NCBI GenBank assembly: GCA_016219325.1
Contig: JACRNH010000014.1
Coordinates: 132 to 64,131 of the forward strand
DNA from: Candidatus Collierbacteria bacterium
Lineage (GTDB): Bacteria; Patescibacteriota; Microgenomatia; UBA1400; JACPES01
Direction: 5' to 3'
Length of the DNA stretch: 64,000 nucleotides
The translations under genes were made by a program, and so were the position numbers. Of the stretch, positions 28,371 through 48,095 are shown piece after piece; position 1 is the stretch's first letter, and each line of letters opens with the position of its first letter. The notes beneath the pieces were generated by a model. It did not search any database. It was not told where the DNA came from and saw nothing but the letters and a program-made list of their open reading frames with translations.

Positions 28371-28376
28371 AACAGT

Positions 28377-29672: not shown

Positions 29673-29680
29673 AATACCAA

Positions 29681-31141: not shown

Positions 31142-31178
31142 TCTCTACCGCGCCATATTCGCGCCACTATCCGCGCCA
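31142..31178. repeat. TCTCTACCGCGCC...CTATCCGCGCCA motif, copy 2 (three CGCGCCA units)
   Basis: Read directly; 11-12 bp periodicity. Confidence 0.8.
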
Positions 31179-31184
31179 GGTTTG

Positions 31185-31226
31185 ATTAGATTAAGAAATA
31201 ACTGGCTCCCTAAATCTTGTTCTAAT
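31185..31226. other. Distal att junction (core GCTC at 31205-31208)
   Basis: TGGCTCCC = antisense of tRNA-Asn 3' end GGGAGCCA; arms ATTAGATTAAGA / TCTTGTTCTAAT symmetric about GC. Confidence 0.75.
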
Positions 31227-31364
31227 ATAAAAGGCATAAATATACAAGCAATACTCGCTTCTTTTCAAAATGTTGCCTATATAGGTGTTCTTAAGCAGCG
31301 ATGGGAAGAAATCAAAAAACTACAAAACCCAATTCAATTAGCTGTTGTTCCTAACCTGAAGTAA
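31206..31364 (+). other. Detached C-terminal coding tail of the element A integrase
   Basis: In frame with the core (CTC = Leu); LPKSCS...VVPNLK*. Confidence 0.6.
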
Positions 31365-31432
31365 GCCCGCTTTCTTTAATCCTTGTATAATCTTCTTAAT
31401 CTTGTTATGACTGCCCGTAATTAAGTTCGGAT

Positions 31433-32248
31433 GTGAGAATTATGAAAAATATGAATCTACCAGCCTATCCTAAAAGAAAGATGAAGGGCAATATTGGGGA
31501 AGCTTTGGCTCAATATGTTTTATCAAAGTTTTGTCTTGTCCATAAAATCGACGGAAGCAACGATATCGGTAACGATTTAATATGCGAGCTTATCAGAGAT
31601 GAATCGCCTACTAATTTGCTTTTTTATGTCCAAGTAAAATACTCAAACAAGAACCCGCAGATAAGAAAAGAAACGCTCGAATACTGGAAAGATTCTCCAG
31701 TTCCCGTATATCTGTTTTGGATTAAAGATAAAAACCCCACCCCTATTTACTCTTCTGATAATTTTTCCGAACTTGAAAAATATTATAAAAGATATACTCC
31801 CATATTGCACAATCCACAGAAGCACTCTAGCGAAAAATTCAAATTATACGAAGAGCTCCAATTCAAAAGAGATCTTATCATTGACTATTCAAGAACACAA
31901 TTTTTCAAGGGTTATGCACCTATTATCGAGCCAAGAGATTTTCTGAACATGAACGAAAAGATGAAGCTAGAATTCAGACAATATGTCTTTTATATTAAAG
32001 ATGTCATTCCAGAATACTCAAAACAAATACTTTCACAAAGCTGGCTTCATATTTTCACCTCTGCTGTTTTGTTGTTCCTAAGGGGCGATATTCAAAGTCT
32101 TCAGCAAGCGAAGGGATCTATCGCAATGGCTAAGAAATACCTAAAATATGCTGATGAGAAAAAAGTGTTTATATTTGAAGAAACTTTAAATGTTTATGAA
32201 AGCAAAATAAACGAGGCAATTCAAGTATTGAACGCAAATAAAAAGTAG
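31433..32248 (+). CDS. DUF4365-like PD-(D/E)XK nuclease
   Basis: KGNIGE...DIGND...FYVQVK. Confidence 0.7.
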   Translation: MRIMKNMNLPAYPKRKMKGNIGEALAQYVLSKFCLVHKIDGSNDIGNDLICELIRDESPTNLLFYVQVKYSNKNPQIRKETLEYWKDSPVPVYLFWIKDKNPTPIYSSDNFSELEKYYKRYTPILHNPQKHSSEKFKLYEELQFKRDLIIDYSRTQFFKGYAPIIEPRDFLNMNEKMKLEFRQYVFYIKDVIPEYSKQILSQSWLHIFTSAVLLFLRGDIQSLQQAKGSIAMAKKYLKYADEKKVFIFEETLNVYESKINEAIQVLNANKK

Positions 32249-32273
32249 TTCATTAGTTTTTGTTACAAATCCA

Positions 32274-32489
32274 TCATCTAAAGAATTCAGGAATTTCAAC
32301 CTTTAATGCCTTTGCAATCTTGTATAGCACGTAAACACTAGGAGAATAGCGGGCATTCTCCAAATGCCCCACATACGTCCTGTAAAGCCCTGCACGGTCT
32401 GCTAGCTCTTCTTGGGAGACATTCCTCTTCTTCCTCCACTTTTTGATTCTTTTACCGACTTCAACTGTAAGCTCTCTTTTGGATAACAT
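32274..32489 (-). CDS. XRE-family HTH regulator
   Basis: SQEELADRAGLYRTYVGHLE. Confidence 0.92.
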   Translation of the reverse strand: MLSKRELTVEVGKRIKKWRKKRNVSQEELADRAGLYRTYVGHLENARYSPSVYVLYKIAKALKVEIPEFFR

Positions 32490-32564
32490 CCTATCTAAAT
32501 TCTCTCTGATTATCAGAAAACGACAACGCGGTAAACATAGACTTTATAAGGAAAATCGTTTATA

Positions 32565-33419
32565 ATGAGGCTAATCAAGTTATGGATAAAATCGATGAAA
32601 AACAAACTTCCTCAGGTAAAATTTATGCCTGCCTTCCTTGTTTTTTTAGTAATCGTTACTCTTATCTGTGCAAACGAAATAATCAAATTCAATCAATTCA
32701 ATAATTATCTTAAACAAGCCGTGGTTTTATCCGCTTATGGAAAATCCCAAGAAGCCCAAGAGAGCTTACGGTTAGCAAAAGAGAGGATAAATACCACTAT
32801 TCTTGTTAAGATCATCAAAAATTGGGAAATTGACCGGACAGAAAAGCAAATCAATGAAATTGGACAATTAGTAGACGAAAAAGTGAGAAGGGTGATTAAT
32901 GAGGAAATGACAACTTCCTCGTCAACATCTACTCCAACTCCCGCGCCCATACAACAAAAACTTTCAACTTTAATTCCGGATCCAACGCGTCCACCAGAAG
33001 ATAAATCCTCTTACGGATATGATTCCTATTACCCGATAATACTGTCTTTTTCCGATAATAAGGGCGGGCTAATCAAATACTCGCAATACAATCAGTATCC
33101 ATATGGCTCGCAAAATACAGGCATCACTCTAAAGACTGGCGATTCCATAACTTGGAAGGCTGAAGCAAGCGACCCAAAAGGCAGACAAATTTCATACAAT
33201 CTAAACTCAAATTCACAACGGTTTAACGATATTTATGGACGAGGAGAATATAAAACTACGAGTCAGTTTGACTATGCGATTACAGAAGAAGATATAAAAA
33301 GTGCAGGAGATACCTTGCGGATGGTTTTATACATTAGGTCTGAAAAGGATAACTACAGAACGGGTGGCGGCGGAAATGATGATTCAACTTATCTTGACTA
33401 TAAACTCCAACCTAATTAA
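32565..33419 (+). CDS. Membrane-anchored exported protein with Ser/Thr/Pro linker
   Basis: N-terminal TM; TSTPTPAP linker; beta-rich C-terminal domain. Confidence 0.7.
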   Translation: MRLIKLWIKSMKNKLPQVKFMPAFLVFLVIVTLICANEIIKFNQFNNYLKQAVVLSAYGKSQEAQESLRLAKERINTTILVKIIKNWEIDRTEKQINEIGQLVDEKVRRVINEEMTTSSSTSTPTPAPIQQKLSTLIPDPTRPPEDKSSYGYDSYYPIILSFSDNKGGLIKYSQYNQYPYGSQNTGITLKTGDSITWKAEASDPKGRQISYNLNSNSQRFNDIYGRGEYKTTSQFDYAITEEDIKSAGDTLRMVLYIRSEKDNYRTGGGGNDDSTYLDYKLQPN

Positions 33420-33424
33420 AAAAT

Positions 33425-33853
33425 ATGGAAAACAAAACAAATTGGTCTTTAATTAAGCAAATACCTTTGTGGGGATGGGGGTTAATTCTGATTCTGTCTA
33501 TTGGTTTTTTATCATCTCTTTCAATCCCCAACAGAGAAACAAAAAACAATAGTAACTCCAATGTAGTCAAGGAGGTCAACAAGCAAACTCAGGCCAAAGT
33601 TAACTTCACTGGCACTCAATTTGTGATAACCAATGCTAATGATTTTGACTGGGAAGAAGTCGAAATCATCATTAATGAAAAATATCGGTACAAAACTGGT
33701 CTAATGAAATCTGGCTCAACCTACGAAATCGGAGCGAGACAATTTACCGATGGCAAAAATGTTCGATTTAATCCTTTCGAGATAAAGCCAGCAGAGATAA
33801 GGATTTGGGTTAAAGAGCCATGGAGTGATGATTGGTACGGAGAACTGAAGTAA
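33425..33853 (+). CDS. Membrane-anchored hypothetical protein
   Basis: N-terminal TM; 142 aa. Confidence 0.7.
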   Translation: MENKTNWSLIKQIPLWGWGLILILSIGFLSSLSIPNRETKNNSNSNVVKEVNKQTQAKVNFTGTQFVITNANDFDWEEVEIIINEKYRYKTGLMKSGSTYEIGARQFTDGKNVRFNPFEIKPAEIRIWVKEPWSDDWYGELK

Positions 33854-33860
33854 GTTGCAA

Positions 33861-36800
33861 CTATTTTTTCTTGTTCAATGCTTCCAACCGAATACCAATC
33901 TGTTTAGTCACATTTTCTTTAACTTTGGCAAAGACTGGTTTAGATAAGATTTGAGGCAATCTCCTCTCTAGTTTTATCAATTCTTCTTTTGTTGCTGATT
34001 TAATGGCAATAGACCATAAAGCACCGAAGTCGGTAGCCGTTTCTAATATTGGCTGAACTGGTGTTTTTGCTGCAATCGCTCTCGAAACTAAATCTGCAAA
34101 AATATTGCTGATATAGTCTATCCAGTAAATTTTATCTTCAGTTATAAGACCAGGTCTCCACATCTTTGAGATGAACTGGAGAAACACGGCACTAAAACTC
34201 CTCAGGTCGGAACCAGGCAGAAAGATTTGATTTATCAAATGATAGCTTCTTGCACGAAACTTAAAATCATCCTCTGCGACTATTACATAGAGGTCATCAC
34301 CACTGAAACTTACAAAGGTGTAAAAACATTCCGCGAGTTTACCAATTGCTTTTGAATACATTGTTGGGTCTAACAATCCCTGCTCTCGAATTTTTTGGAT
34401 AATTAACCAAGTATTCAATGGGGTTATAGCCTCTGATTTAAGAAGCCTATATAACCTAAAATCATCTGTGACCATGATCGTCCCCCTCTTTTTAGCGAGG
34501 TTCATCGAATCAATGAGCCAGCTTTCAAAAAGGTCATTTGTCTTTTGCCCTTTCAATTTACCTTTTGGAACGTGCTTTATGATTTTTATAGCAGTGCTAC
34601 TTCTAAGAAAGTTCCACAACCTCCTAAGACTTTCATTTTCTTCTTGCAAAAGCTCATCTTGAATTTTTTGAAAAAGCGAAAAGGAAATCTCCATCTGTGG
34701 GCATATTTTCTCGGTATCATTAAGAAGATTTAACTTTGACAGTGTGAGTAAGGATAGGTAATCAAATACAAAGACCTTATCTTTTGAATAGTTATCTTCT
34801 AGTTCTTTTCTAAACTCAACCGATGGCAGGGTGTACTCAAACGGCATTTCTGGATCTCTGCCAGACCATACGGTTATATACGGCTTCTTAAAAGTATTCT
34901 GCAGGAAGTAGGAGGGAATAGGCTGTTGTACGTATATTTGCTTAATTCTATTCGTCCACTCTCTCCTATCTTGAATCATTTTGATAATTTTTCCCTTATC
35001 CTTTCTATAGTCTATCTTTTGGATAGATTTTAGTTCTGGAAATTTTTCATCGAAAGCTAGCGCTCCCTCTAACAATCTGTCTCCACCTTCCTCGGAGGCA
35101 TACCTTAACATAACTGCCCCATAATGAGATAAAACCATTTGTACAGCAGGACCTTTTGGCAGTTGCTCAGCAAACCCCCTTGCTTTTGAGGCGGCTAATA
35201 TTGCCTTGTTTTTATCTCCTAGTAATACTTCGACAAGGCTTACGTCCAACCAGTACTGAAAATCATGTTTGTTTGTGGCTTCCTCCTCAATTTTTTGAAA
35301 TAGACCCCGAGCTATTTCTGGACAGCCATTATAAAGAAATGCTCGAGCGATTCTTATGGTTTCTTTATAGGAAATTTTGTCAAAATCAGGTAAAGATTGT
35401 AGTAGTGATAACGAAACTTCAAAGTCCCTCTTTCTAAATGCCTCAACTGCTTTCAGGAATTTGTCTCCTAGAGTGGATTCATTGGGTATATCACTAATCG
35501 GTAAAGCCATTCTCTTAAGCTTTTGCTCTCCCAACCATGTCCTAACTACATTTTGAAAGTAAAAAACTTCGTCATAGAACAGTGTTAGCTCCTTCTCTCT
35601 AGCCACAGACATCGCTTCATCAAAGTCTGCCTTCGCTTGGTTTAAATGCGTCTTTTTTTGAAACTCTGGGGCAATGTCTGAATAGCCAACGGAGTACGGT
35701 ACGGCATCTTTCTCAAGAGCTATAGCAAGCATGACGCGTCCTCTTAACAATAGACTTTCAACATCGTGCTTAAGCTTACAAGAAATATCTGCAAACTTAA
35801 AAGCATTATCTAACTGCCCAGCTTCTAGGTAAAAATGCCCTACAGTAAGCGATAAGACGTCATCGGAAGTAAACAGCTGCGAATATTGAACGCCTTTTTC
35901 TATGAAACCAATTACACCAGACACTCCTTCTTTAACTCTGACTAGTTTCAAATACACTTGTAATATCGCGGGGTCCTGATCCCTTCTTGTTTCTACCATC
36001 AGTGGTTGAAGTATCTGTTGTGCTTTATCTAGTTCACTTTTAGCTTCTTGTTCTTGTAGCTTTTGGCTTTTGTTTATGTGAACCGTAGCCAAGTTTTTGA
36101 CAGCAATTATGAAATCTGTATTTGCCTTAACTGCTTTCCTGAAGTACTCAATAGCTTCATCTAATTCATCTTCAATGCTGCAAGCAACTCCTATGTTGTT
36201 GTAGACTTTCGCTAATTCATTCCCAAAGTCAGGTTTATCTTCAATCTTCCCAAGAATTTTGAACAATAGTGTTTTGGCTTCTCCAATACTGCCCCTATCG
36301 AGCAAGTCTTTTGCTATTTTAATCTCTTCGTCTATAACTGATCTCTCTATGCCTTTGCCACTTAGGGCAATTGAGGTGGGTTTTTGTTCGTTTTGAGGAG
36401 TGTAAATCGACAACACATCTTTTTTCTGTTCTAACTGCTTTGCTTTCTTTACATCCTTATCTGTTGGTATTCTTTTTTGTCTTCTCGGTGTCGTTTTCAC
36501 AGAGAAAATCTTTTGTTCCTCTTTTCCTTCAAGACCCTTCTTTATCACTTGCTCTTTCCAAACCCCTAATATTCTTTTTCTCTCTGTAAGAGAAAGTTTG
36601 ATAGTCTCCCCATAAATATCTTTATAAATCTTAGGAAAACAGCCTATGAGGTCTTTAATCTGTTGTCTTACGGTCCAAAGGACAATTCTAAACGGATAAC
36701 TATGCTTCTGGAGGGAACCATCTACTACTTCTCTAAATTCGTTGTCAACAAAGCCGAATGGAGCAAATATACACCAACAATCACTGGGGGTACTGGAAGA

Positions 36801-37085
36801 GTAAAACTGACTAAGTTTGGTGTGTGTTTCGGTTTTTGGGATTAGTGTTTCCTTGCGACTCTCACAACCGTGACTTTTTGACTCTATTGCCCAGGCAAAC
36901 TCAATCTCTTTATCGTCAATTTTTGCAGACCACTTAGATATGTGATCCTTGCCAAATTGCAATCCACCACTTTGTGGATTTAATTCTAAAGGTAGGAATT
37001 TCCATTCTTTCAGAAGACAAGTTAAAAATTCGTGCAGTATTTTTTCATACTTGTCGCCCTTAGGCTTAGAGCCCTGTATTTTCAT
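33861..37085 (-). CDS. REase-like + TPR + PIN domain protein, putative defence effector
   Basis: Q.G.D...ESK N-terminus; TPR (AKVYNNIGV...AIEYFRKAV); PIN-like VFDYLSLL...MVTDD. Confidence 0.7.
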   Translation of the reverse strand: MKIQGSKPKGDKYEKILHEFLTCLLKEWKFLPLELNPQSGGLQFGKDHISKWSAKIDDKEIEFAWAIESKSHGCESRKETLIPKTETHTKLSQFYSSSTPSDCWCIFAPFGFVDNEFREVVDGSLQKHSYPFRIVLWTVRQQIKDLIGCFPKIYKDIYGETIKLSLTERKRILGVWKEQVIKKGLEGKEEQKIFSVKTTPRRQKRIPTDKDVKKAKQLEQKKDVLSIYTPQNEQKPTSIALSGKGIERSVIDEEIKIAKDLLDRGSIGEAKTLLFKILGKIEDKPDFGNELAKVYNNIGVACSIEDELDEAIEYFRKAVKANTDFIIAVKNLATVHINKSQKLQEQEAKSELDKAQQILQPLMVETRRDQDPAILQVYLKLVRVKEGVSGVIGFIEKGVQYSQLFTSDDVLSLTVGHFYLEAGQLDNAFKFADISCKLKHDVESLLLRGRVMLAIALEKDAVPYSVGYSDIAPEFQKKTHLNQAKADFDEAMSVAREKELTLFYDEVFYFQNVVRTWLGEQKLKRMALPISDIPNESTLGDKFLKAVEAFRKRDFEVSLSLLQSLPDFDKISYKETIRIARAFLYNGCPEIARGLFQKIEEEATNKHDFQYWLDVSLVEVLLGDKNKAILAASKARGFAEQLPKGPAVQMVLSHYGAVMLRYASEEGGDRLLEGALAFDEKFPELKSIQKIDYRKDKGKIIKMIQDRREWTNRIKQIYVQQPIPSYFLQNTFKKPYITVWSGRDPEMPFEYTLPSVEFRKELEDNYSKDKVFVFDYLSLLTLSKLNLLNDTEKICPQMEISFSLFQKIQDELLQEENESLRRLWNFLRSSTAIKIIKHVPKGKLKGQKTNDLFESWLIDSMNLAKKRGTIMVTDDFRLYRLLKSEAITPLNTWLIIQKIREQGLLDPTMYSKAIGKLAECFYTFVSFSGDDLYVIVAEDDFKFRARSYHLINQIFLPGSDLRSFSAVFLQFISKMWRPGLITEDKIYWIDYISNIFADLVSRAIAAKTPVQPILETATDFGALWSIAIKSATKEELIKLERRLPQILSKPVFAKVKENVTKQIGIRLEALNKKK

Positions 37086-37107
37086 AGTTATATTGTATCG
37101 AAGCAGC

Positions 37108-37326
37108 TCATCCGTTTATGAGTTTTTGAATATCTTCCAAACGGTAGCGTCTGTCTCCTGTAACATTGGGATTACTCCTTTTAGGGTGTGCCCTCGAACC
37201 AATCCTTATAGCCACCAATCGACTTTCTTTATCCCACCTTCTCAGCGTGGCGGGGTGGACGCTCAAAAGTTTGGCGGCTTCTTTAATTTTTAACAATCTT
37301 GAAATTTTTGTTTTTGTTTCGTCCAT
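37108..37326 (-). CDS. MerR/excisionase-like HTH protein, candidate recombination directionality factor
   Basis: LLKIKEAAKLLSVHPATLRRWD...RRYR. Confidence 0.8.
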   Translation of the reverse strand: MDETKTKISRLLKIKEAAKLLSVHPATLRRWDKESRLVAIRIGSRAHPKRSNPNVTGDRRYRLEDIQKLING

Positions 37327-37404
37327 AGTCGACTCGTTTCTTTAGCTTAATTATGTTAAATTATACATTAGCACTGGTTAATTATAAAGACAATCAAGAT
37401 AAAT

Positions 37405-38157
37405 ATGAGTTTTGAACCCATAAGCATAAAGATTGATGACTTAAAACTATTTGCAGACGTAGCTTTTGCAATTGATAGTCCATTTTTCATCAACGAAGCT
37501 GTCAAACTCAGAAAACAATACGGTATCACTGAACCCCTTGGGGGGAGTTCTTATCAAACTTGGGCTGTCGAACACTTAAGCGAGAAGGGTATTAAAATTC
37601 TCTTTAAACAAGTATCTGAAATTCGAGCCCGCATGATACTGACCGCTAATTATCAAGAAGTTTTCGAAAAAGCTGTTTTTGGTTGTGATATTGAAAATGG
37701 AGATTACGAAACAACTATGCTTATCAACTTTCAAAAACTACCCAACTATTTGAGCTATAAGCTACCAATATCTGAAATGTATGCAATTCTTCTTTCACCC
37801 CAAACAAGATATGACGATGTTAAAAACACATTTGCCAGATATGAAAAGCTCATGGCTTCGTTTAGAGAAAAAATAGATACCGTTAACTTGTTTGATAATT
37901 ATAATCAAAGTAAAAGCAACATCAAAACTGTTAGGAAATGGTACTGGATTAGGTACGGGGATGTAGTTTCGAATCGGTCGGAAAAACCAAAAACCTACCC
38001 TGAAATATTAAAGGAGTGGGGGCGTAAATGTCCAAAATGTGAAGAGGGTCATGCGACTGCTGGAGAAAATGCAAGATGCCCCTATTGTCGTATTACAGAC
38101 CAAAATATCCTAGAAAAACTTGTTCCCGAGTATAGAAAAAGGTTAAGACAGCCCTGA
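37405..38157 (+). CDS. Conserved element backbone protein (homologous to 44301-44918)
   Basis: Shared N-terminus and WYW motif; C-terminal CxxC...CxxC. Confidence 0.7.
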   Translation: MSFEPISIKIDDLKLFADVAFAIDSPFFINEAVKLRKQYGITEPLGGSSYQTWAVEHLSEKGIKILFKQVSEIRARMILTANYQEVFEKAVFGCDIENGDYETTMLINFQKLPNYLSYKLPISEMYAILLSPQTRYDDVKNTFARYEKLMASFREKIDTVNLFDNYNQSKSNIKTVRKWYWIRYGDVVSNRSEKPKTYPEILKEWGRKCPKCEEGHATAGENARCPYCRITDQNILEKLVPEYRKRLRQP

Positions 38158-38240
38158 CGGTTTTCCTCATCAAATCTTCCGTGACTCTCTTTCTTTAATT
38201 TGTAACCATATGGTTAGACAGATAATTTTGTCTGACTGAT

Positions 38241-38399
38241 ATGGGTAATCAAAAAATTAATCAATCTAAAAAGGAAGGCGAGCCTACGCTTGAGGGCATC
38301 GTGGAAGCGTGGGTTAAGTTGTGCCTTTTCCATATCAAAAAAACCAAAGAATTGGTTAATCAATATAAAGATAAAAAATATGAAAGCAAAACAATATAA
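38241..38399 (+). CDS. Small hypothetical protein (52 aa, not in ORF track)
   Basis: MGNQKIN...YESKTI*; overlaps the start of the next gene. Confidence 0.45.
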   Translation: MGNQKINQSKKEGEPTLEGIVEAWVKLCLFHIKKTKELVNQYKDKKYESKTI

Positions 38400-38655
38400 C
38401 AAACCAGTATTTTCGACAGACAACTTTGCTTTGGCGGTTTTCCTTAAAACCAAATCGTGCAGGTACCTGCACATTTCAAAAGACAATCCTCGACACGCAA
38501 CATTCCATTTTGAAGATAGCTCCGAAAGAGAAAGGCTAACCGCTGGGTTTTGGCAAGGTACAGCGTTAGTCGAACCCCGTGCTTTTTATAACAACCAGAG
38601 AGAGTTTAAGACATTACTTTACGACAGCAGCTATCCAACCAAAATGACAACCTAA
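38380..38655 (+). CDS. DUF5659 family protein
   Basis: FSTDNFALAVFL...VEPRAF....REFK; homologous to 44988-45239. Confidence 0.75.
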   Translation: MKAKQYNKPVFSTDNFALAVFLKTKSCRYLHISKDNPRHATFHFEDSSERERLTAGFWQGTALVEPRAFYNNQREFKTLLYDSSYPTKMTT

Positions 38656-38683
38656 CTTACTTTGAAAATTTATCAAAATAAAT

Positions 38684-39088
38684 ATGACTGAATTACTAGA
38701 GTTAGCAACCATAAAAATAGATTTAAAAATGCAGGGTAATTTTTTAGCTAAAGTAACACTAAATTGGCGAGATGAGTTTGAAGTACGTTTTTTTCGAATT
38801 CTTCGCTCAAGCACGGGTAAGGCGTGGCTTCAGCCACCCTGCCTGGAAAAATTTGGGTGGGCGAAATGTTTTGGCGTACTTGATCGTGATAACTGGAAAG
38901 AGTTTATGAGCAGGGTAATCGTTCAATTCAAAGAAGAATTAAAGGAAAAGGTTAAAGAAGGCACCTATTCGCCAGCGGTTTTAAGGAAGATAGAAGAAGC
39001 AGAAGACGAAAGCATCGATCTCAATGATATTCCCGATGATCTGGGAGGGGTAAATATTAAACCTATACGCACTTATGAGAACAAATAG
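38684..39088 (+). CDS. SpoVG-like protein with acidic tail
   Basis: LAKVTL...FEVRFFRI...WLQPP; EDESIDLNDIPDD. Confidence 0.5.
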   Translation: MTELLELATIKIDLKMQGNFLAKVTLNWRDEFEVRFFRILRSSTGKAWLQPPCLEKFGWAKCFGVLDRDNWKEFMSRVIVQFKEELKEKVKEGTYSPAVLRKIEEAEDESIDLNDIPDDLGGVNIKPIRTYENK

Positions 39089-39177
39089 TAACTATATAGT
39101 TACAAGTGACTATATGTAACTATAAAAGAGGATGGATAACGAAAGGATTGTGCATTGATTGTGCATTGATTGTGCAT
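39088..39177. repeat. Palindrome GTAACTATATAGTTAC, GTRACTATA repeats and (GATTGTGCATT)x3
   Basis: Read directly; followed by a very AT-rich tract. Confidence 0.85.
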
Positions 39178-39260
39178 CAAAAACTGAATAGAAACACAAT
39201 TTGCTTAATTAAATATAATTAGTTATAATTAAGTTTAATTAACTAATTTTAAGAAACAAA

Positions 39261-40850
39261 ATGAAAAATTGTTTCATCTATATAAGGGTTTCGACCGATA
39301 CGCAGGCAACTGAGGGTTACTCTTTGGACAACCAAAAAAGAGCTTGCAAAGAGTACGCAGTAAACAAGGAGTATCACCCAAAAGAGGTATTTGTTGACGA
39401 TGGAAAATCTGGGAGAACCGCCAATAGGCCTGAATTTCAGGAAATGTTGAAGAAATTGAAGGATAAACAGGCAGAGTGTGTCATCATCTACAAAATTGAC
39501 CGTTTTGCCCGTAATGTAACTGATTTTTCAAGGGTGAGAAAAGAATTCATTGAGGCGGGCATTGATTTTCTTTCAGTTATGGAGGGCGACCTAACCAATG
39601 GATCAAGCCTTATCTCGAACATCTTCGCCTCGGTCGCAGAATGGGAATCGGAAGTTAATAGTACCAGAACAATAGATGCTCTGGAACAAAAATTTCGAGG
39701 CGGTTGGCAGCCCACCCCACCGCCGATAGGTTATATGACAGTCGGAGAAAAGAATGAGAGAAAATCGTGCGAGCCAGACCCCTATACCGCTCCCATAATC
39801 AAAGAATTGTTTGAGCTCTACGCAACTGGCAACTACTCCCTATTGGAACTACAAGACTGGTTAAGTCAAAAAGATATTGTTTCAAAAAGCGGGACCATCA
39901 TTGGTCACTCAGTAATCAACAACATCTTGAGGAACCCTTTCTACTACGGTCTTATCCGTTGGCACGGAGTGTCAAAAATAGGTAAGCAGAAACCTATCCT
40001 CAAAAAGGATCTCTTTGACACCTGCCAATATGTTCTAGCTAAGCATCGAAGTTTTTTAATCAGGAAAAGGAAACACGATTTTCTGTTGCGGGGTTTTATA
40101 TTCTGTGACAATTGCGAACAACGATATACCGCCGAGTGGCATTATGATGCCCACAAGCTAAAAAACAGAGGTGGCAAAATTGGCTATTACCACTGTCAGA
40201 AAAGGGATAGGAATGGTTGTTCCGCTCCATATGTGGAAATTGAAGATTTACAGAAGCAAGTTGAAGATCAATTTAAGAAAATGCAGTTCTCGCAAAAGTT
40301 TATCGAGATGGTAGTCGTTAAGACTAAAGAGGCAATGACTGAAGGACGAAGTTATCTTAATAATCAACGAATGCAATTAGTGAACCGTAAGACATCGCTT
40401 GAAACAAAGCGAAACAAGCTTGAAGATTCGCTTCTTAACGAAGCTGTTGATAAAGATACCTACAAGAGGCTCCACGTCAAGATCCAAGACAAAATATACG
40501 CAATTAATGACAGGATTGAAGAACTTGAAGATAAGGCTAATATCGATACCAATCTAATTGAGGAAGTGCTGTCCTTTACAAGGGATATTTACAATACATA
40601 CAAGCAGTCACCCGCATTTCTTAAACGCCACTATTTACGGTTCTTCTTTGAGAAGCTGTATGTCAATAATTGTAAGATTTCTAAAATTGAACCGACCCCG
40701 ATTTTCGCGATACTACGGGAAAATCAAGAGGTTATAATAACGGATAATCAGCTCAAGAAATGGAATGAGTTTAGGACTCTAAGCCTTCTGGGTGAAGAAA
40801 TAGAATATTCAGAAATCATCATGGAACAAACAAGGGAGTTGCTTTCCTGA
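39261..40850 (+). CDS. Large serine recombinase (element A), C-terminal tail supplied by element B
   Basis: YIRVST catalytic motif, DGKSG, DRFAR, Zn-ribbon CDNC...YYHC, coiled coil. Confidence 0.95.
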   Translation: MKNCFIYIRVSTDTQATEGYSLDNQKRACKEYAVNKEYHPKEVFVDDGKSGRTANRPEFQEMLKKLKDKQAECVIIYKIDRFARNVTDFSRVRKEFIEAGIDFLSVMEGDLTNGSSLISNIFASVAEWESEVNSTRTIDALEQKFRGGWQPTPPPIGYMTVGEKNERKSCEPDPYTAPIIKELFELYATGNYSLLELQDWLSQKDIVSKSGTIIGHSVINNILRNPFYYGLIRWHGVSKIGKQKPILKKDLFDTCQYVLAKHRSFLIRKRKHDFLLRGFIFCDNCEQRYTAEWHYDAHKLKNRGGKIGYYHCQKRDRNGCSAPYVEIEDLQKQVEDQFKKMQFSQKFIEMVVVKTKEAMTEGRSYLNNQRMQLVNRKTSLETKRNKLEDSLLNEAVDKDTYKRLHVKIQDKIYAINDRIEELEDKANIDTNLIEEVLSFTRDIYNTYKQSPAFLKRHYLRFFFEKLYVNNCKISKIEPTPIFAILRENQEVIITDNQLKKWNEFRTLSLLGEEIEYSEIIMEQTRELLS

Positions 40851-40853
40851 TGA

Positions 40854-41591
40854 TTATTTAGAAACTTCTATAAAGCAATTTGTATCTAACTTACATCTAT
40901 ATCGGATTTCCATTTTTAGTATCTGATTGGGCAATTTGGTTGTAGAAACGAATCCTCCAATAAAATATTGACGTTTTTTATTTGTCTTATAAGAAAGGTC
41001 TTTGTCTAGAAATTCTTCAGTAATATTTACTTCTTTTTTCTTTGGTTCTAATGGAAATGGCAACTGTCCTAATGGTAATTTGGTCATGTCATATAAAAAT
41101 TCTGAAGCAGAGCTAGAAACTAGACTTTCAGAATTTACTAGGTGTCCCTGTTTGCTATGGCCATTAACAATGAAAAAATAAACAGACTCATTTTTGACAT
41201 CTATGGCACCCGTCTTTATATAAAGATATGCTTCAGACAGATCCCCTTGGATATTGATTTCTACGCTATTTCGCTCTAAATAATCTCTTAATCAGTCGGG
41301 GTTTGTAATAAAAGCTGGAGTCATCAACGGTTTGTCTTCGCTAGAGATTGTTGCGACCTTAAATCGTGATGTCTGGATTAAGAGGTCTACTTGTTCTCCC
41401 TTTTTCTTCTCTATACCTTCTGTCGTAACATCGGGGACCACCACCCCTTCTTCTTTTTCTTTAGGAGTAATCCTGGAGATCGCAACAGGAAAAATCGTTG
41501 TAAATACCGATGCCAAAAATACGAGAAGAATACCCGTTAGAATTAGATCCCATTGGATTTTGCCATTTCCGCTAACTTGATTTACTGTCAT
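40854..41591 (-). pseudogene. Membrane-anchored protein interrupted by one in-frame TGA (41292-41294)
   Basis: Track ORFs 41292-41600 and 40854-41087 share a frame; no other stop lies between them. Confidence 0.7.
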
Positions 41592-41940
41592 TTTCAACAA
41601 TTGATTTTATCTTAGCAGGACTTAATATTAGCAGAAATAATGAAATGTATCCATAAGTTAATGTCCATGCGGATAATGATTCCTTATTGAGGTATGGGAA
41701 TAGTCTCCTATAAAATAAGACGCCGATAACCCCAAAAGCTACTTCCGGCATTCCCTGTCTGTATATATTGCCAACAGTGTTTCAATAATTAACTTCAATG
41801 AAGTCCGTAAACCTAGCTCCGATAAGAAACAATATAAATCCTGAAAAGATTACTATATAGAGCTGAGAGTAAGACACAAAAGCTTTTGGGTTTCCCCAAA
41901 GTGAAGCTTTTCCGATAGCTCTTATAAAATTAGTCTTCAT
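41572..41940 (-). pseudogene. Membrane protein interrupted by one in-frame TGA (41782-41784)
   Basis: MKTNFIRAIG...EVNY*NTVG...DSKSS; ends TAG; fills the gap between neighbours. Confidence 0.6.
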
Positions 41941-41949
41941 CAAGTTTAA

Positions 41950-42528
41950 TTATTCTTCCTTTATTTCGTCTAATTTTTCTCCAATTTCGTAGATAAAATA
42001 TAATAGTGCTTCAATGAATTTTAGAATTCCTGTCGCCTCTTCTTGTTCTCCAATTTTAATTTCATGGTTTTTCTCGTTCCCTATATTTTTCAAGTATTCT
42101 AACAATCTCCCTGCATTAGGTGGAATGTAGTTGGACGAGGCAAGATGTTTTATGTAATCTTTGAATGACTCTCCTTCTTTTGCTTGAGCAACATCAACAG
42201 CAATATGCATGATTAGTTTACGACCGAGCAATATAGCTGCTGTGTAACAATCGTTTTTCATTGACTCTCTTATTTCGTAATAAATCCTTTCTATGCCTAT
42301 TGGTAAATTTAGAATCGTTTTTCCCAGCATCGGACCAGGATACTGCATCTGGCTATAGAAGAAAGTAGGCCTTCCACAGTTGGTACAAATATAAATCCTG
42401 GCGCTGAAATTTTTATGAAAATATCCTTTATCTGATCCAACTTTATCCCCACAGAATCCGCAGACATAACTTTGAGGATTTAACTGCAAAAGCCCCTGCC
42501 AATCTGGCCAGCCGATATTGAACTCCAT
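41950..42528 (-). CDS. DUF4145 (HEPN-like) domain protein with N-terminal Zn ribbon
   Basis: CGFC...CTNC, AAILLGRKLI, GNEKNH. Confidence 0.8.
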   Translation of the reverse strand: MEFNIGWPDWQGLLQLNPQSYVCGFCGDKVGSDKGYFHKNFSARIYICTNCGRPTFFYSQMQYPGPMLGKTILNLPIGIERIYYEIRESMKNDCYTAAILLGRKLIMHIAVDVAQAKEGESFKDYIKHLASSNYIPPNAGRLLEYLKNIGNEKNHEIKIGEQEEATGILKFIEALLYFIYEIGEKLDEIKEE

Positions 42529-42601
42529 AACTTGGCTATTATCTCACAAATTCTGATAATCTCATCACTGTAATTTTCAATTTTTGTGGTCTAAACTAAG
42601 G

Positions 42602-42811
42602 TTACAGAAAATCTCGTAGTTTTACTTTCAATACTTTTGCTATTTTATAGAGGCCGCGTAACGAAATATTGCTTTCACCCCTCTCAATCCGTCCGTAGGT
42701 GGTCCAGTGGATACCAAGTCTATCAGCAATTTCCTCTTGGGTTAGGCCTTTTACTTTTCTAACCCTTTTCATCCTTCTGCCAACTAGATTGGAAATTTTA
42801 TAGCGCTTCAT
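42602..42811 (-). CDS. XRE-family HTH regulator
   Basis: LTQEEIADRLGIHWTTYGRIERG. Confidence 0.92.
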   Translation of the reverse strand: MKRYKISNLVGRRMKRVRKVKGLTQEEIADRLGIHWTTYGRIERGESNISLRGLYKIAKVLKVKLRDFL

Positions 42812-42917
42812 GCTATCTTTGAACATAGACAGCATTTTGCAATTACTCCATAGCGTCTGACGCTTTATTTGGCTTGACTTTAGATTGAAAATTTGTTAGT
42901 CTCCTCTCCGAGATGAT

Positions 42918-43448
42918 ATGGAACTAAAAAAATATATGAAAATCTTAAAAATTGGCTGTATTTCTTTCTTTGTAATCGCATTGATAACAGTTATTCTTTC
43001 GTTTAACTATGGGAAGTATGAAAACGAACCAAAGAGAGAAACCAAACAGACTCAAGCTGTTGACGCTCAAGTCGTAATCCCCACGACCGCCTTTCCGATT
43101 TATGAAAAACTAAGCCATGAGAAATCAGAAACTACCGAAAACTTTTCTTTTCTAGTTAAAGTTGAAGATAAATCAGCCAAGAATTTAAAGCGATTGGCAC
43201 TAGAAATCAAGAGTAAAGAATGTAAAATGTCCTGTAATATCAGCTTGTTTGATGATAGACGAGCGGCGGAACTTGACGGTGAGTACAAGAGACTGAATAC
43301 CATAGAAGAACAAAACGGTTGGAAGGAGAGAAACTATATTTATGTGGCCGATCACTTAGCAGGATTTCTGGAATTTAGTAGCGAAACATTTTCTTACTAT
43401 CCGTATAGAGACTGGTATTACGAAGAGTTGAAAGCAAAACAACAATGA
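42918..43448 (+). CDS. Membrane-anchored hypothetical protein
   Basis: N-terminal TM; divergent from XRE. Confidence 0.7.
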   Translation: MELKKYMKILKIGCISFFVIALITVILSFNYGKYENEPKRETKQTQAVDAQVVIPTTAFPIYEKLSHEKSETTENFSFLVKVEDKSAKNLKRLALEIKSKECKMSCNISLFDDRRAAELDGEYKRLNTIEEQNGWKERNYIYVADHLAGFLEFSSETFSYYPYRDWYYEELKAKQQ

Positions 43449-43804
43449 AAAAAAACATTATTGTAGGTATTCTGATTGCCGCTATTAGCGGAGTTATTGC
43501 TTCGCTAACCACACTGAAGATTAGCGGTGTCAAATGGCAGAAAGAACAGCAGGCAAATCTTGATTCCTCGGCGTTGCCTATTATTGCGTCGGAAGGCGGT
43601 ATTGATGATAGCCAGGAAATCTCTACTAATCTAGTTCAGACTCGGTACGTTACTGGACCAGGAAGCGACGGTTACTGGGCGTTGTATTGCCTCTATCCCA
43701 AAGACGAATTTGGATTTTCTACCCGGTGGGCGGTACTTAAGGCAAAAGGCGAAGGGTGTCCGGCAGATTACACCTCTGTTCAACTTTGGGGAAAGAAGAA
43801 TTAA
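43445..43804 (+). CDS. Exported hypothetical protein
   Basis: Signal/TM; ATGA overlap with the previous gene. Confidence 0.65.
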   Translation: MKKNIIVGILIAAISGVIASLTTLKISGVKWQKEQQANLDSSALPIIASEGGIDDSQEISTNLVQTRYVTGPGSDGYWALYCLYPKDEFGFSTRWAVLKAKGEGCPADYTSVQLWGKKN

Positions 43805-43812
43805 ACGCTTGT

Positions 43813-44259
43813 CTAAATGTTTGTTTGGCAACTTTGTATTTTTTGGTGAATAGTCCGAACTATATTCTTGAAGGAAAGCGAGTTGTCAGTAGTCGGTGTG
43901 TTATTCAGCAACAATCCATTGGCTATCTTTCGGTCAAAGCAGTTGAGCTGTGAGGCGAAAACTACTTGTAGGGCCATTAGACGATGTCTGGGGTTCAATC
44001 TTTCATTATTAGCAATTTCTGCTCCGATTCGGCTGACCCAGTTCGCTACATCTTCAAGTACTGCCATTTCTTCTGTAATAAAACGGTCTTTAAATCTGTT
44101 TAATCGCTCGCCCCTTACCTTCCTTAGGCGTTTAGCGATGAAATTCTTGTCATGATTTAAAAGTTGAGCCAGCGATCTGACTGACGCCTTAGGATTCTGC
44201 ATGAGGCATTGTTGAATTTGGGAATCTATCTCGCGGATGTAAACAGAACTTAACTTCAT
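43813..44259 (-). CDS. HTH-containing protein
   Basis: NPKASVRSLAQLLNHDKNFIAKRL. Confidence 0.55.
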   Translation of the reverse strand: MKLSSVYIREIDSQIQQCLMQNPKASVRSLAQLLNHDKNFIAKRLRKVRGERLNRFKDRFITEEMAVLEDVANWVSRIGAEIANNERLNPRHRLMALQVVFASQLNCFDRKIANGLLLNNTPTTDNSLSFKNIVRTIHQKIQSCQTNI

Positions 44260-44300
44260 GTATGTTATTGTACGTTAATAATCAAAATATCTAAATCAAT

Positions 44301-44918
44301 ATGGCGTTTGATCAAATAAAAATCAAAATCTCTAATAAGCGAAGATTTGAGTCAGTATCAACTCTGGTTGATAGAACAGACTTTGAAGAATTGGTTGTTT
44401 TTTTACGGAACAAGATTGGCCTTACTAACAAACTTATTCCATATGAACACTTTGATCAATTCTATAAATCACTTGATTACCACCTTAATTCAGAAGAACT
44501 TTCAGAATATAACCAAATGATTGATGAAATGGAACTCCTAGAAAATAGGAATCAAAAAACACCTGAGGAAGCAAAAACCTACTCCATTTTACGGCAAGAA
44601 ATTAGGAGATGGCAAAATCCCAAGCATAACTTTCTTACCCGCTTAGACAAATACCTATCTGATCACAAAATTGCTTCTGGATATAAAACAGTAGTAATAA
44701 AAGCGATTGTCTGTGGGGAAATTAAAGAAAACGACTTCACACTGAGTGTGGTTTCTAAAGGACTTAGAAATATAGACCGAGATAGAAGATGGTACTGGGT
44801 AAACCGCCGATTGTCTGGGGCAAAGAGGATGGGGTACATGAAAATTGCAAAAAGGCATAAAGAATATCTAAGAACAGTTGAAAACGCCATAAAGACCTAC
44901 GCATCAAGATTAACTTAA
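44301..44918 (+). CDS. Conserved element backbone protein (homologous to 37405-38157)
   Basis: MAFDQIKIKI..., KAIVCGEI, RRWYW; C-terminal HTH-like segment. Confidence 0.7.
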   Translation: MAFDQIKIKISNKRRFESVSTLVDRTDFEELVVFLRNKIGLTNKLIPYEHFDQFYKSLDYHLNSEELSEYNQMIDEMELLENRNQKTPEEAKTYSILRQEIRRWQNPKHNFLTRLDKYLSDHKIASGYKTVVIKAIVCGEIKENDFTLSVVSKGLRNIDRDRRWYWVNRRLSGAKRMGYMKIAKRHKEYLRTVENAIKTYASRLT

Positions 44919-44987
44919 CCTCTAGGGGTATCTAAAGTAAGGTTGGGAAATTTTAAAATTGTTTTTCATCGGGGAAAATAACCCCAA

Positions 44988-45239
44988 ATGGAAAATAAGA
45001 ATCATCTATATAAATCAGATTCGCTTCATTTAGCAGCATTTCTCATAGCTAAAGGGTGTGAGTTGGCAGAGGTTGAAAGACTCTCTGATGACAGTAGAAA
45101 GCTGTTATTTTGTTTTCCCGATACTAACAAGCTTCAGAATTTATTAAGTGAATTTTTCGCCCTCCGAGCTAAAGTTAGGCCTCAAGACTTTGCTAATGCC
45201 CAAAGGACATTGAAGACAATTATTTTTGCTCAAAAATAA
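44988..45239 (+). CDS. DUF5659 family protein
   Basis: YKSDSLHLAAFL...VRPQDF....RTLK. Confidence 0.75.
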   Translation: MENKNHLYKSDSLHLAAFLIAKGCELAEVERLSDDSRKLLFCFPDTNKLQNLLSEFFALRAKVRPQDFANAQRTLKTIIFAQK

Positions 45240-45249
45240 TTGGGGCGAA

Positions 45250-45462
45250 ATGATAAATAAACAGCTAATTAAGGAACTAAAAACGATATTGAATGACGAG
45301 TTCGGGATCAATGAAAAGGATGGTGTTGTTGCTGAAGTAGCTAACTATCTCATCAATATGTTTGAAGTTCTAATTGAAGTAAAAACTGAGATAAAAACCA
45401 AGAATAACCCCGCTTTCTGTTCCGGCGCGATACTTAATGTGTGTATTGCTCAAACACTGTAG
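45250..45462 (+). CDS. Small hypothetical protein
   Basis: MINKQLIKELKTIL.DEFG. Confidence 0.5.
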   Translation: MINKQLIKELKTILNDEFGINEKDGVVAEVANYLINMFEVLIEVKTEIKTKNNPAFCSGAILNVCIAQTL

Positions 45463-45799
45463 GCAAGATGAATATTGCTATCCTGGCCAAAGAACCATTG
45501 CCGATACTCTTGGTTATAGTCCTAGATACATCAGGAATCTTGTTTCAGAGCTGGAAAGCCAACATCTGGTTTCTAAAAAACGGAGAGGCTTTAATAAAAC
45601 AAATACCTATAGAGTAATCAAAGACTTGACACTTGATGGGAACTCTACTTCCCCTCACTTAAGAACTAAGTATCCGCTCAATCAAGGAAACCAGTTTCCG
45701 ACTAATATAAATTATAGAATAGGAAAAAGTAATATAAAAGGAATGAAATCTTTAAGAGAAGCATTAATCAAAATCGGGGTTAAACAAAAAATTGACTAG
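45437..45799 (+). CDS. HTH_36 replication-initiator-like protein, possibly 5'-truncated
   Basis: CYPGQRTIADTLGYSPRYIRNLVSELE...TNTY. Confidence 0.7.
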   Translation: MCVLLKHCRQDEYCYPGQRTIADTLGYSPRYIRNLVSELESQHLVSKKRRGFNKTNTYRVIKDLTLDGNSTSPHLRTKYPLNQGNQFPTNINYRIGKSNIKGMKSLREALIKIGVKQKID

Positions 45800-45856
45800 C
45801 CGTGTTTAGCGAAAAACCAATATTTGTTACTATGCGAGCCTAAGGATAAACAATAT

Positions 45857-47467
45857 ATGAAGGCTGTACTACTTTGCAGGGTATCAAGTAAGGAACAAGG
45901 AGAGTCTGGTTACTCACTTCCGGCACAGGAAAAACTCCTCAGTAGTTATACGACCGGAAAAGGCTTCAAAATAGCCAGGGTGTTTTCTATATCAGAATCA
46001 GCAAGCGGCAAGAAACAAAGGGAAGTATTTAACTCAATGATAGCCTACGTAAAAGAAAACGACATTAAGGTTATTATCATTGAGAAGGCAGATAGGTTTA
46101 CCAGAAATTTCAAGGACTCAGTTGCTTTGTATGAGTGGTTAAATGAAGATGAAGAAAGACAACTCCACTCAGTAAAAGATTCTCTTATCCTTCATAAAAA
46201 TTCACGGTCTCAGGAAAAACTAAACTGGGACATCAGAATCGTTTTTGCTAAGAACTACATAGATAACCTATCCGAAGAGGTTAAGAAGGGCCAAAAAGAG
46301 AAATTATCTCAAGGGTGGCTACCAACGAAACCACCACTGGGATATAAGACGGTCGGGGTTCAAGGCCATAAGATTCACATTATTGACGAAGAAATTGCTC
46401 CCTTGGTCAAGAAAATGTTTGAGCTATATGCTACCGGCGACTACTCTATTAAACGGTTGGTTAAAGTGATGAATGCCAATGGCCTAAGAAACAAGCTAGG
46501 AAGGAAATTAGTCGGCAGCAGAATTCATCAACTCCTGACCGATCCTTTCTATGTTGGGAAAAACCGTTGGCTAGGGAATTTATATGATGGGAAGCAGGAT
46601 ACTTTTATCAGCAGAGAAATATTTGATAGGGTCCAACAGCTTCTAAAAAGCAAATCGGCACCAAGAGTTCGTATCCATGATTTCTTATTCCGAGGCCTTT
46701 GCCGATGCGCTCGCTGTGAAGGAATGATTACATGGGAGACCCACAAAGGCATCATCTACGGCCATTGCAATATTTACTATCACCAATGTACGGCTCGCAA
46801 ATGGGCAACAGAGGCAATTGTTGAATCACAATTAACTGATGTATTTGAGAAACTACAGATCCGCAACCAGCGGCTTTTGGAATGGGTTAGAAAAGCACTT
46901 AAGGAGAGCCATCAGGATGAAGTCGTCTATAGAACATCATCTTTGAATGAGCTTAACGAGTATCAAAAACAGATTAGGCGGCGGCTGGATCGCTTGTATG
47001 ACGATAAGATTGACGGCAAGATCACGGAAGAATTTTATCAGCGAAAATATCGCCAATATTCAGATGAGCTGGATGATGCAAGCCGAAAAATCAAAGGCCA
47101 TGATGTGGCTAACCTCAAATACATGGAGTTAGGAATCAATCTTTTTGAATTATCGCAACAAGCCAAGGATATTTATCTTAATGCGGGTATTGAGCGAAAG
47201 CGAAAGCTGCTCCGCCTTTTCTTCAGCCGATTAATGCTTGATGAGAAAAAGCTAACCTATAACTTCACCAAGCCCTATGAAATTCTTTCCCAAGCCGTAG
47301 ATGTTACCAATAGTTCTAAACTGGTAAAAGTTGAAGAAAAGTCGGACAGAATTATAGAACATAAAATAATGATTGATGATTCAGAACAAATAGGTGATTT
47401 ACAACATCTTCGTTCTATCGTGCTCCCCCGGCTGGACTCGAACCAGCGACATCCTCGTTACAGGTAA
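45857..47467 (+). CDS. Large serine recombinase (element B), 3' end antisense to tRNA-Asn and intron
   Basis: CRVSS, ESAS, DRFTR, Zn-ribbon CARC; ends VLPRLDSNQRHPRYR*. Confidence 0.95.
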   Translation: MKAVLLCRVSSKEQGESGYSLPAQEKLLSSYTTGKGFKIARVFSISESASGKKQREVFNSMIAYVKENDIKVIIIEKADRFTRNFKDSVALYEWLNEDEERQLHSVKDSLILHKNSRSQEKLNWDIRIVFAKNYIDNLSEEVKKGQKEKLSQGWLPTKPPLGYKTVGVQGHKIHIIDEEIAPLVKKMFELYATGDYSIKRLVKVMNANGLRNKLGRKLVGSRIHQLLTDPFYVGKNRWLGNLYDGKQDTFISREIFDRVQQLLKSKSAPRVRIHDFLFRGLCRCARCEGMITWETHKGIIYGHCNIYYHQCTARKWATEAIVESQLTDVFEKLQIRNQRLLEWVRKALKESHQDEVVYRTSSLNELNEYQKQIRRRLDRLYDDKIDGKITEEFYQRKYRQYSDELDDASRKIKGHDVANLKYMELGINLFELSQQAKDIYLNAGIERKRKLLRLFFSRLMLDEKKLTYNFTKPYEILSQAVDVTNSSKLVKVEEKSDRIIEHKIMIDDSEQIGDLQHLRSIVLPRLDSNQRHPRYR

Positions 47468-47980
47468 TCCACTACTTTCGTAGAAGCTTGGACTATATCT
47501 TTGCCATGCTCAAATGAGTTTAGGCACTTTGGTATTTAGTCTCTACGGCGTCCCGCAAAAAATGTGGGTTCCCACGGTGTTACCGCTTAAATCGTAAAAG
47601 GCTTCACCGTTATCCCAAAGAGTTCATCCCTAAGTTTCCTTAGGAAGCTGCGTTTTGCCTGCGTGTATCTCTCTATGGCAATTTGCGCATACCAAAACGC
47701 ACTTGTCTATTTCTTTCTTAATCTTTTCCCATGATCGCGTAAGGCCGCGAACCGAAAGCCCAAAATCTTTTTGTTTCGGATCTCTATGGTGAAAATCAAG
47801 GGCATCTTGACAGCGCTGATATCCACAAATGACGCATTTCCCGCCTTTGTATTCACGAGCCATTTCTCGAAGGCGTTTTCGCCTTTCTGAAACAGCTCTC
47901 TTTAAATACTCGGAACGGTCGGCATAAGTCCTTGTATCTGGCATATACATCTGAGTATACCAAACTTATGACTTAATTCC
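47461..47980 (-). ncRNA. Group I intron (520 nt) at anticodon position 35/36
   Basis: U before 5' splice site, terminal G; P1 GCTGT|G pairs with CGCAGC (U-G at the site); P3 CTTTGG/CCAAAG; P7 GAGACTA/TAGTCC. Confidence 0.9.
47630..47950 (-). CDS. Intron-encoded HNH endonuclease
   Basis: CVICGY, LDFHH, CVLVCANCHREIH. Confidence 0.85.
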   Translation of the reverse strand: MYMPDTRTYADRSEYLKRAVSERRKRLREMAREYKGGKCVICGYQRCQDALDFHHRDPKQKDFGLSVRGLTRSWEKIKKEIDKCVLVCANCHREIHAGKTQLPKET

Positions 47981-48095
47981 ACAGCGAGGCGCTCTACCAA
48001 CTGAGCTACAGGGGAATGTCAATGTACAAGTCAGATTATATCAGGCAATAAATCCTGTCCGCCTGAATTTTTAATCAGAATGTTACAATTTTACG

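Follow-up and report, generated by a model that had tools for sequence, protein, structure and literature searches.

Tandem integrative elements at a split tRNA-Asn gene carry conserved integrase tails that begin at the crossover core

The 64,000-nucleotide stretch of Candidatus Collierbacteria bacterium DNA analyzed here (contig JACRNH010000014.1, positions 132 to 64,131; hereafter referred to as the window) contains two integrative elements, A and B, lying in tandem and head-to-tail at the 3' end of a tRNA-Asn gene that an intron interrupts, each with a gene encoding a large serine integrase (Table 1). Both integrases match PF00239 (Resolvase) and PF07508 (Recombinase) above cut-off, and integrase A also matches Zn_ribbon_recom (PF13408). 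The Cys pairs are invariant in the families of both proteins, as is, fully or nearly so, the R-V-S motif of the catalytic Ser. The two integrases share 30% identity (134/448 aligned residues), and their named homologues are Patescibacteria. Integrase B is read from the ATG at 45857, with the TTG at 45824 as a possible alternative start.

An original prediction, made from the letters alone, had placed a GCTC core at 31205, 40751 and 47422, always in the same Leu frame, and re-reading of the sequence confirmed both the three positions and the in-frame CTC codon at each; both recombinase open reading frames (ORFs) cross a core, and rejoining the element ends gives the tails that had been predicted. 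The 47422 copy, proposed to be a tRNA 3' end, is indeed G73-C74 of a minus-strand tRNA-Asn(GTT) made up of a 5' exon (48015-47981), a 520-nt intron (47980-47461) that splits the gene between anticodon positions 35 and 36, and a 3' exon (47460-47422). Default ARAGORN and Rfam runs did not detect the tRNA-Asn at 47422..48015, because the 520-nt intron, of group I and carrying an HNH gene, interrupts it. The intron matches RF00028 with 44.7 bits (E-value 5e-10), just short of the gathering score of 50, and its boundary letters, a U preceding the 5' splice site and a final G, are consistent with a group I intron. Introns at the same anticodon position in relatives are shorter, or there is none. 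Also as predicted, the letters TGGCTCCC at 31203, at the left end of element A, give GGGAGCCA when read on the opposite strand, and the empty site therefore encodes CCA. Since the genome encodes a PF01743 nucleotidyltransferase, and just 11 of its 42 ARAGORN tRNA calls end in CCA, the loss of an encoded CCA at tRNA-Asn should be harmless. By itself, the four-letter core amounts to no evidence, with 42 GCTC occurrences on the + strand of the 31185..47467 interval. The symmetry of the rejoined arms about GC, once offered in support of the attachment (att) sites, was rejected as evidence: at 11/25 matches it lies within the range of shuffled sequences (P 0.14 for A, 0.11 for B).

The element boundaries were fixed independently by the contigs and depths of a sequencing run, X1, which may be the source sample of the window DNA. 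Among its contigs are the joint 31204>47422 at depth 15.5, which is the empty site whose presence the original prediction had proposed to check, and the joint 40750>47422 at depth 36.3, an allele with element A only; these joints rest on short sides (24 and 26 letters). Depth runs from about 66 in the left flank to 43.8 in A, 16.2 in B and 68-76 in the right flank, and the two joint depths together with that of B approximate the depth of the flanks. Given the joints and the depth steps, the population is a mix of empty, A-only and A+B chromosomes. The letters shared at the two crossover joints, 4 and 6, define a very short core. No B-only joint was present among the X1 contigs, and none of the empty, A-only, B-only or circle joints was seen in the thinly covered contigs of X2 and X3, two further runs from the same study. 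The X1 contig differs from the window by 100 extra letters at 45411-45412 and about 10 substitutions over element B, either strain variation or an assembly difference.

Table 1. Coordinates of the elements, crossover cores, tails and genes discussed in the text (window positions).
Feature	Position	Strand	Remarks
Left arm of leftmost junction	31180..31204	+	tRNA-Asn 3' flank in empty allele; holds antisense of CCA
Element A, 9,546 bp	31205..40750		Single X1 contig 31181-40754 at depth 43.8
Left crossover core GCTC	31205..31208	+	GCTCCC common to 31205 and 47422 copies
Alpha tail frame, start-less, 52 codons (LPKSCS...VPNLK)	31206..31364	+	Predicted own C-terminus of integrase A
DUF4365 nuclease-like protein	31433-32248		Defence-like cargo
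TPR-PIN protein	33861-37085	-	Defence-like cargo
DUF5659 small genes	38290-38655 and 44988-45239		Upstream of integrases A and B
Large serine integrase A, 529 aa as integrated	39261..40850	+	Native body up to Leu498, followed by B's tail
Element B, 6,671 bp	40751..47421		X1 depth 16
Middle crossover core GCTC (A/B junction)	40751..40754	+	Joint 40750>47422
Beta tail, 32 codons (LKKWNEFRT...RELLS)	40752..40850	+	Predicted native C-terminus of integrase B; fused to A as integrated
DUF4145 protein	41950-42528	-	Weak PD-T7-4 match; defence-like cargo
Large serine integrase B	45857..47467	+	Body to Leu523, then 13 residues from tRNA antisense strand
Right crossover core	47422..47425	+	GC = tRNA C74/G73
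tRNA-Asn(GTT)	47422..48015	-	Sole tRNA-Asn found by ARAGORN in the assembly
Group I intron with HNH endonuclease ORF (47630-47950)	47461..47980	-	RF00028 match; HNH domain match

Among 85 homologues of integrase A, the likeness ends at Leu498, a Leu occupies the core position in 75 and about 12 carry helical tails that do not derive from a tRNA (hand counts). None of the 85 ends in KKWNEFRT, an ending that would have spoken against the original prediction, and just one (P0029) carries that tail family. A KKWNEFRT-like tail of the form W-x-x-F-R-T...I-E-x-P-E was found in 8 of the best 120 of 154 homologues of integrase B (hand count). Of 117 integrase ends mapped in fetched DNA, 96 enter a tRNA 3' end in antisense and 21 enter something else (a few of these being mis-picks); the tRNA-derived tails are variable, with a median of 10 aa and at most 15 aa in 87 of the 96.

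Upstream tails were located with profiles derived from fused tails, all frames being covered and stops read through. Where a tail frame lies upstream of the integrase, at the far end of the element, its family follows that of the integrase. For A-like integrases the nearest upstream tail is of the alpha (PKSCS/FQNVxYIG) type in 10 of 11 cases, at 7.6-11.4 kb, and for B-like integrases it is of the beta (KKWNEFRT) type in 11 of 11, at 6.7-15.4 kb, both counts including the window. These placements indicate that tail family is tied to integrase family (Fisher P 3e-5, computed over kin that are not independent). Fused tails show a different pattern: A-like bodies are joined to alpha, beta, gamma, delta or epsilon tails, the near-identical integrases L148 and L149 bear different tails (in a set for which a quick-version tree was built on 36 selected rows), and one beta tail follows unrelated integrase ends in L149, P0124 and P0223, with beta tails as a family coming after many ends that are not akin. 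To judge from these fusions, the tails are a property of the downstream element, which lends them to its upstream neighbour, whatever that is. For the beta tail alone, matches extend to 232 protein clusters at 50% identity and to 30 of 401 genomes sampled from the phylum. In keeping with a very short shared core, 12 of 15 further beta tails begin at GCT. Together with the X1 joints, the placement of tails in relatives bears out the proposal that the phage-type site, attP, lies inside the integrase gene; the nearest upstream tails uphold the assignment of each predicted tail to A or B, and the beta family, sitting upstream of B-like integrases, agrees with the claim that A now carries the tail of B.

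Some loci hold tails in stacks. At L157:7039-9198, four tail frames (beta, alpha, gamma, beta) occur within about 2 kb, some behind relics of integrase ends, resembling a graveyard of collapsed elements, and L166 and L049 contain similar stacks.

Selection on the tails was assessed in 33 distinct tails that scored 40 or more and had a GCT core, matches that were weaker or had no core being left out, by comparing nonsynonymous (pN) and synonymous (pS) differences past codon 9, that is, past the 27-bp att arm. There, pN/pS was 0.42/0.72 for beta, with pN below pS in 85 of 91 pairs, and 0.32/0.75 for alpha1 (28 of 28 pairs); pN was also the lower value in 14 of 15 alpha2 and 7 of 10 gamma pairs, and the closest beta pairs gave pN 0.11-0.15 against pS 0.43-0.90. 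The integrase frame is open in all 33 tails and the other five frames in 0-11 of 33, and the read-through search met an internal stop in just 2 of 42 beta matches, with beta tails recovered for most B-like loci; the tails were, however, located by protein profile, which itself favours open frames and low pN. We consider it very improbable that the tails are neutral read-through whose conservation merely reflects DNA motifs of the att arm. Such motifs do fall within the first nine codons, where DxxRT encodes the shifted motif described below, and over these codons alpha1 shows pN 0.41 against pS 0.48; yet selection reaches 20-30 codons further than the arm, a length of exactly 32 aa is shared by 10 of 14 beta tails, the W, F, P, E and L columns are nearly invariant, and shuffled DNA stays open over 30 codons in only about 10% of trials. 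This substitution pattern indicates that the tail is a protein under purifying selection beyond the att arm.

How such a protein would be translated bears on its role. Conserved start codons are absent from both the 21 unfused tails and the 147 called beta-tail proteins: in the latter the core is preceded by W in 50 proteins and by L in 25, and the length upstream of it varies from 0 to 198 aa. Gene callers nevertheless place a Met right before the core Leu in 19 of the 147, so that separate translation of the tail is possible in some contexts, and an in-frame ATG, GTG or TTG lies near 12 of the 21 unfused tails (ATG in 4). A separate micro-protein made from the integrated left end and acting in trans, its fusion to the integrase being incidental, would fit these starts, but we regard it as improbable: besides the lack of a conserved start, one tail at L157 directly follows a stop, and the tail frame is always the frame of the integrase.

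Structure models were made for natural fused relatives rather than for the rejoined A or B of the window. For a B-family protein that ends in a beta tail, the model shows three helices (predicted local distance difference test, pLDDT, 71-79) after a disordered linker. Solved integrases align to their last residues within residues 1-480 of this model, and the crossover falls at about 522, some 40 residues later; across the homologue models, matches to the SPbeta, Bxb1 and LI integrases gave Z scores of 15-17 and root-mean-square deviations of 4.5-19 Å over 210-448 residues, with the tail region unaligned in the fold search. Because the canonical fold ends before the crossover, the chromosomal body is, in these models, a complete integrase fold and the tail an appendage. 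Amphipathicity stands out clearly against 300 shuffles for the alpha tail only (exceeded by 1 of 300; beta 21, gamma 263). Searches of the tails against PDB sequences (best E-values 0.5 and 1.1) and PHROGs returned no match, nor did a search of the alpha tail against the ESM Atlas.

Starting from what can be read directly, namely the boundaries, the tail frames that begin at the core and the tails fused to foreign neighbours, we propose that A and B are small integrative elements independent of one another, and that the integrase of each would recombine at the GC of tRNA positions 73-74, within the last codons of its own gene. On the excised circle, integrase A would consist of its body and the alpha tail (549 aa) and integrase B of its body and the beta tail (554 aa from ATG 45857). 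Integration would leave the tail at the far end of the element without a start codon, and the integrated integrase would be a complete, tail-less enzyme ending in a short tRNA read-through or, in a tandem array, in the tail of the next element. This probably amounts to a functional switch coupled to the integration state, most likely one in which the circle-borne tailed enzyme is the integration-competent form and the chromosomal form is less active or biased towards excision, since the tail is selected and yet would normally be translatable only across the rejoined site. Element A probably integrated first, followed by B into the tRNA junction that A had regenerated. That A bears the tail of B is then probably a by-product; the suggestion that a newcomer alters the resident integrase holds at the level of sequence, and nothing beyond a by-product is indicated.

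The tail might do no more than raise the activity or stability of the circle form, an on/off effect like that of the phage Mx8 integrase discussed below, leaving direction unaffected and excision to a separate factor. We find this plausible, if short of probable. In addition to the Mx8 precedent, related elements share small genes encoding helix-turn-helix (HTH) and DUF5659 proteins, and the integrated alleles appear stable, no circles being visible in the X1-X3 contigs. On the other hand, the modelled tail-less body is already a complete integrase fold, the tail C-termini have no obvious degradation-tag ending in common, and the empty and A-only alleles may reflect excision by the tail-less enzyme, or equally lineages that were never occupied.

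A more specific version of the switch treats the tail as a built-in recombination directionality factor (RDF) that would dock on the zinc-ribbon/coiled-coil hinge, so that the circle form integrates and the tail-less form reverses the reaction. In engineered Int-RDF fusions, the RDF is placed past the canonical C-terminus, and the C-terminal helix of the RDF packs at the coiled-coil hinge (PMC11722253). In the models, the tails, at 32-54 aa and helical, sit where those fusions carry the RDF. The geometry of the att sites adds to this. Counted outward from the GC, the tRNA arm has TCGAAC at 15-20, and the alpha, beta and delta tail arms have a like motif at 20-25. In the A family, the outer motif occupies +13..21 in gene-encoded arms (n=56) as well as in tRNA arms (n=76), and +18..26 in the tail arms. 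A 5-bp shift of the outer motif is what separates attB from attP half-sites in the relevant part of PMC3783163, from which the outer motif would by analogy be the site of the zinc ribbon domain. With its gene-encoded arm short-spaced, the A circle site would thus be mixed (attL-like) and the A-tRNA junction attB-like, and this junction would be a ready target for B.

The spacing rule is not general, since B-family gene arms have the outer motif at neither spacing and the left arms of target sites are mostly unconstrained (alpha, 1 of 9 at either spacing; beta, 4 of 22 at the short and 0 of 22 at the long). Because the gene arm is short, the A-family attP does not have two long (P-type) arms; two long arms at every left junction were likewise rejected as a general arrangement, holding only for the left site of the window, whose left arm scores at both spacings. 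The motifs missing from B-family gene arms and from most left arms weaken the RDF interpretation, as do the absence of a sequence match between the tails and any solved RDF, the lack of a visible docking site, and an excisionase-like HTH gene in 15 of 20 related elements, which could be a separate factor. We therefore treat it as tentative and doubtful. Rather unlikely, in our judgement, is its fullest form, in which recombination itself would attach and remove the directionality factor, the circle giving rise to a naturally fused Int-RDF that integrates and the chromosome to a bare Int that excises, with the site logic of the A family inverted and the newcomer's tail and long arm locking the resident in tandem arrays. 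Locking would fit the finding of empty, A and A+B alleles with no B-only allele, a lack that history would explain just as well.

Several observations weigh against the proposed switch and against the tail assignments on which it draws. No circle (go-back) joint, the junction for which the original prediction had proposed searching reads, was found in the X1-X3 contigs, which drop rare forms. The beta tail of the window is itself a divergent member of its family, without the usual W12 and P20, and the nearest tail of one A-like integrase (L037) is a delta tail. No upstream tail was found for 37 integrases, mostly with too little upstream DNA; among these loci, however, 11 A-like ones had at least 11 kb and 2 B-like ones at least 15 kb upstream. 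The model of an A-family protein with an alpha2 tail has one low-confidence helix (pLDDT 47-66) in that region. No tail profile matched in the 31 viral loci scanned, and of 17 viral loci with a circle-junction pattern, none had an integrase or tail match.

Canonical large serine integrases generally have their att sites outside the integrase gene, and their RDF is a separate protein. Integrases A and B resemble the LI/A118, SPbeta, phiC31 and Bxb1 enzymes in domain order, fold, short core and 5-bp half-site shift, and differ from them in the A-family circle site, with one short and one long arm, and in the tail beyond the canonical end. The layout with att inside int is already on record. In the Dehalococcoides ssrA islands, which also form tandem arrays at a structural RNA gene, the 3' end of the serine integrase gene dsiB overlaps att, and it was suggested that DsiB may be fully functional only when its gene is on the circle, or when an adjacent island upstream of it supplies the 3' fragment from the next position in the array (McMurdie 2011, PMC3146451). 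As described there, those islands use ssrA (the gene for transfer-messenger RNA), a 20-bp repeat and a second recombinase, DsiA, whereas A and B have one recombinase per element and a core of 4-6 bp at the 3' end of tRNA-Asn; the DsiB end region was judged divergent, with no conserved tail in the sections describing it, whereas the tails here are conserved. The Mx8 Int likewise has attP within its coding sequence, and integration swaps its C-terminal 112 residues for 13, the integrated form being reported as less active or altered in specificity (PMC6070905, PMC4701971). By analogy, A and B would work like Mx8 Int but are not members of its group: Mx8 Int is a phage tyrosine recombinase with a far longer lost segment, for which these accounts describe no tandem tail exchange, and A and B belong to the serine family. 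In streptococcal integrative and conjugative elements at rumA, att also lies inside a serine integrase gene, and the excised form has a different C-terminus for which a functional difference was proposed (Ambroset 2016, PMC4701971); these elements are conjugative and target a protein-coding gene, and the passages on them describe neither tail families nor a selection test. According to the Islander account (2014), no targeting of tRNA genes by serine integrases was known. Our literature search, thin in its coverage of subscription journals, found no paper on conserved, selected, start-less tails of tRNA-targeting serine integrases, nor on a link of such tails to integrase family. The layout, including the borrowed neighbour end of DsiB, is thus known from these systems, and selection on the tails and their link to integrase family would be the new part.

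In addition to the integrase, element A encodes a DUF4365 nuclease-like protein, an XRE HTH protein, a TPR-PIN protein, a MerR/excisionase-like HTH protein and a DUF5659 protein, and element B a DUF4145 protein, XRE HTH and DUF5659 proteins and an HTH_36 replication-initiator-like ORF. Of 20 related elements, 13 have DUF5659 homologues. Among the scanned ORFs of A and B, none was recognised as a conjugation or phage structural gene, and relatives in phage and plasmid collections reach at most about 31% identity among the matches listed. A promoter scan of 39000-41300 returned fewer sites than in shuffles. The genome has two further large serine recombinases: the 3' end of the third (L001:664-2274, G000:C14) runs antisense through a tRNA-Arg(TCG) call, and the fourth (L003) ends beside a transposase-like ORF.

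The left flank of the elements looks like a relic integrase end in a wider and older variable zone rather than pristine host DNA, because the left arm resembles a relic integrase end (..LIRLRNNW), with similar relics in L163 and L165, and synteny of the window with the same-genus genome G001 ends near 21300. The left arm matches the tRNA-Asn flank of G001 in 14 of 17 letters before an insertion sequence intervenes. This element (L007:1-1141), which we take from its ORF layout to be IS3-like, interrupts the att left arm at a distance of 17 bp from the 3' end of tRNA-Asn and is followed by the contig end, leaving the pristine empty site unreadable in G001. From 21384 to 31117 the window carries an accessory-looking run of genes with no DNA match at the corresponding position of G001; there, about 1 kb past the last shared gene, lies an alpha-type tail junction (L029:3093). 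An 88% 26-bp direct repeat (29634-29659 and 31129-31154) brackets, in cassette-like fashion, an AAA_14/DUF4143 ATPase gene (29681-31117) with a strong PADLOC PDC-S01 match.

Large serine integrases are used as genome-engineering tools, and to our knowledge the directionality factors of many of them are not known. The tails described here suggest that a widespread group of these integrases keeps a regulatory peptide across its own crossover. With the tail parked on the far side of that crossover, annotated chromosomal copies would be truncated, so that cloning them for a screen would mean assaying the wrong protein. Selection on the tails adds evidence to the idea that McMurdie et al. put forward for DsiB, and the proposed switch would be directly testable, since a single population offers all three alleles and the exact sites and both tails are in hand.

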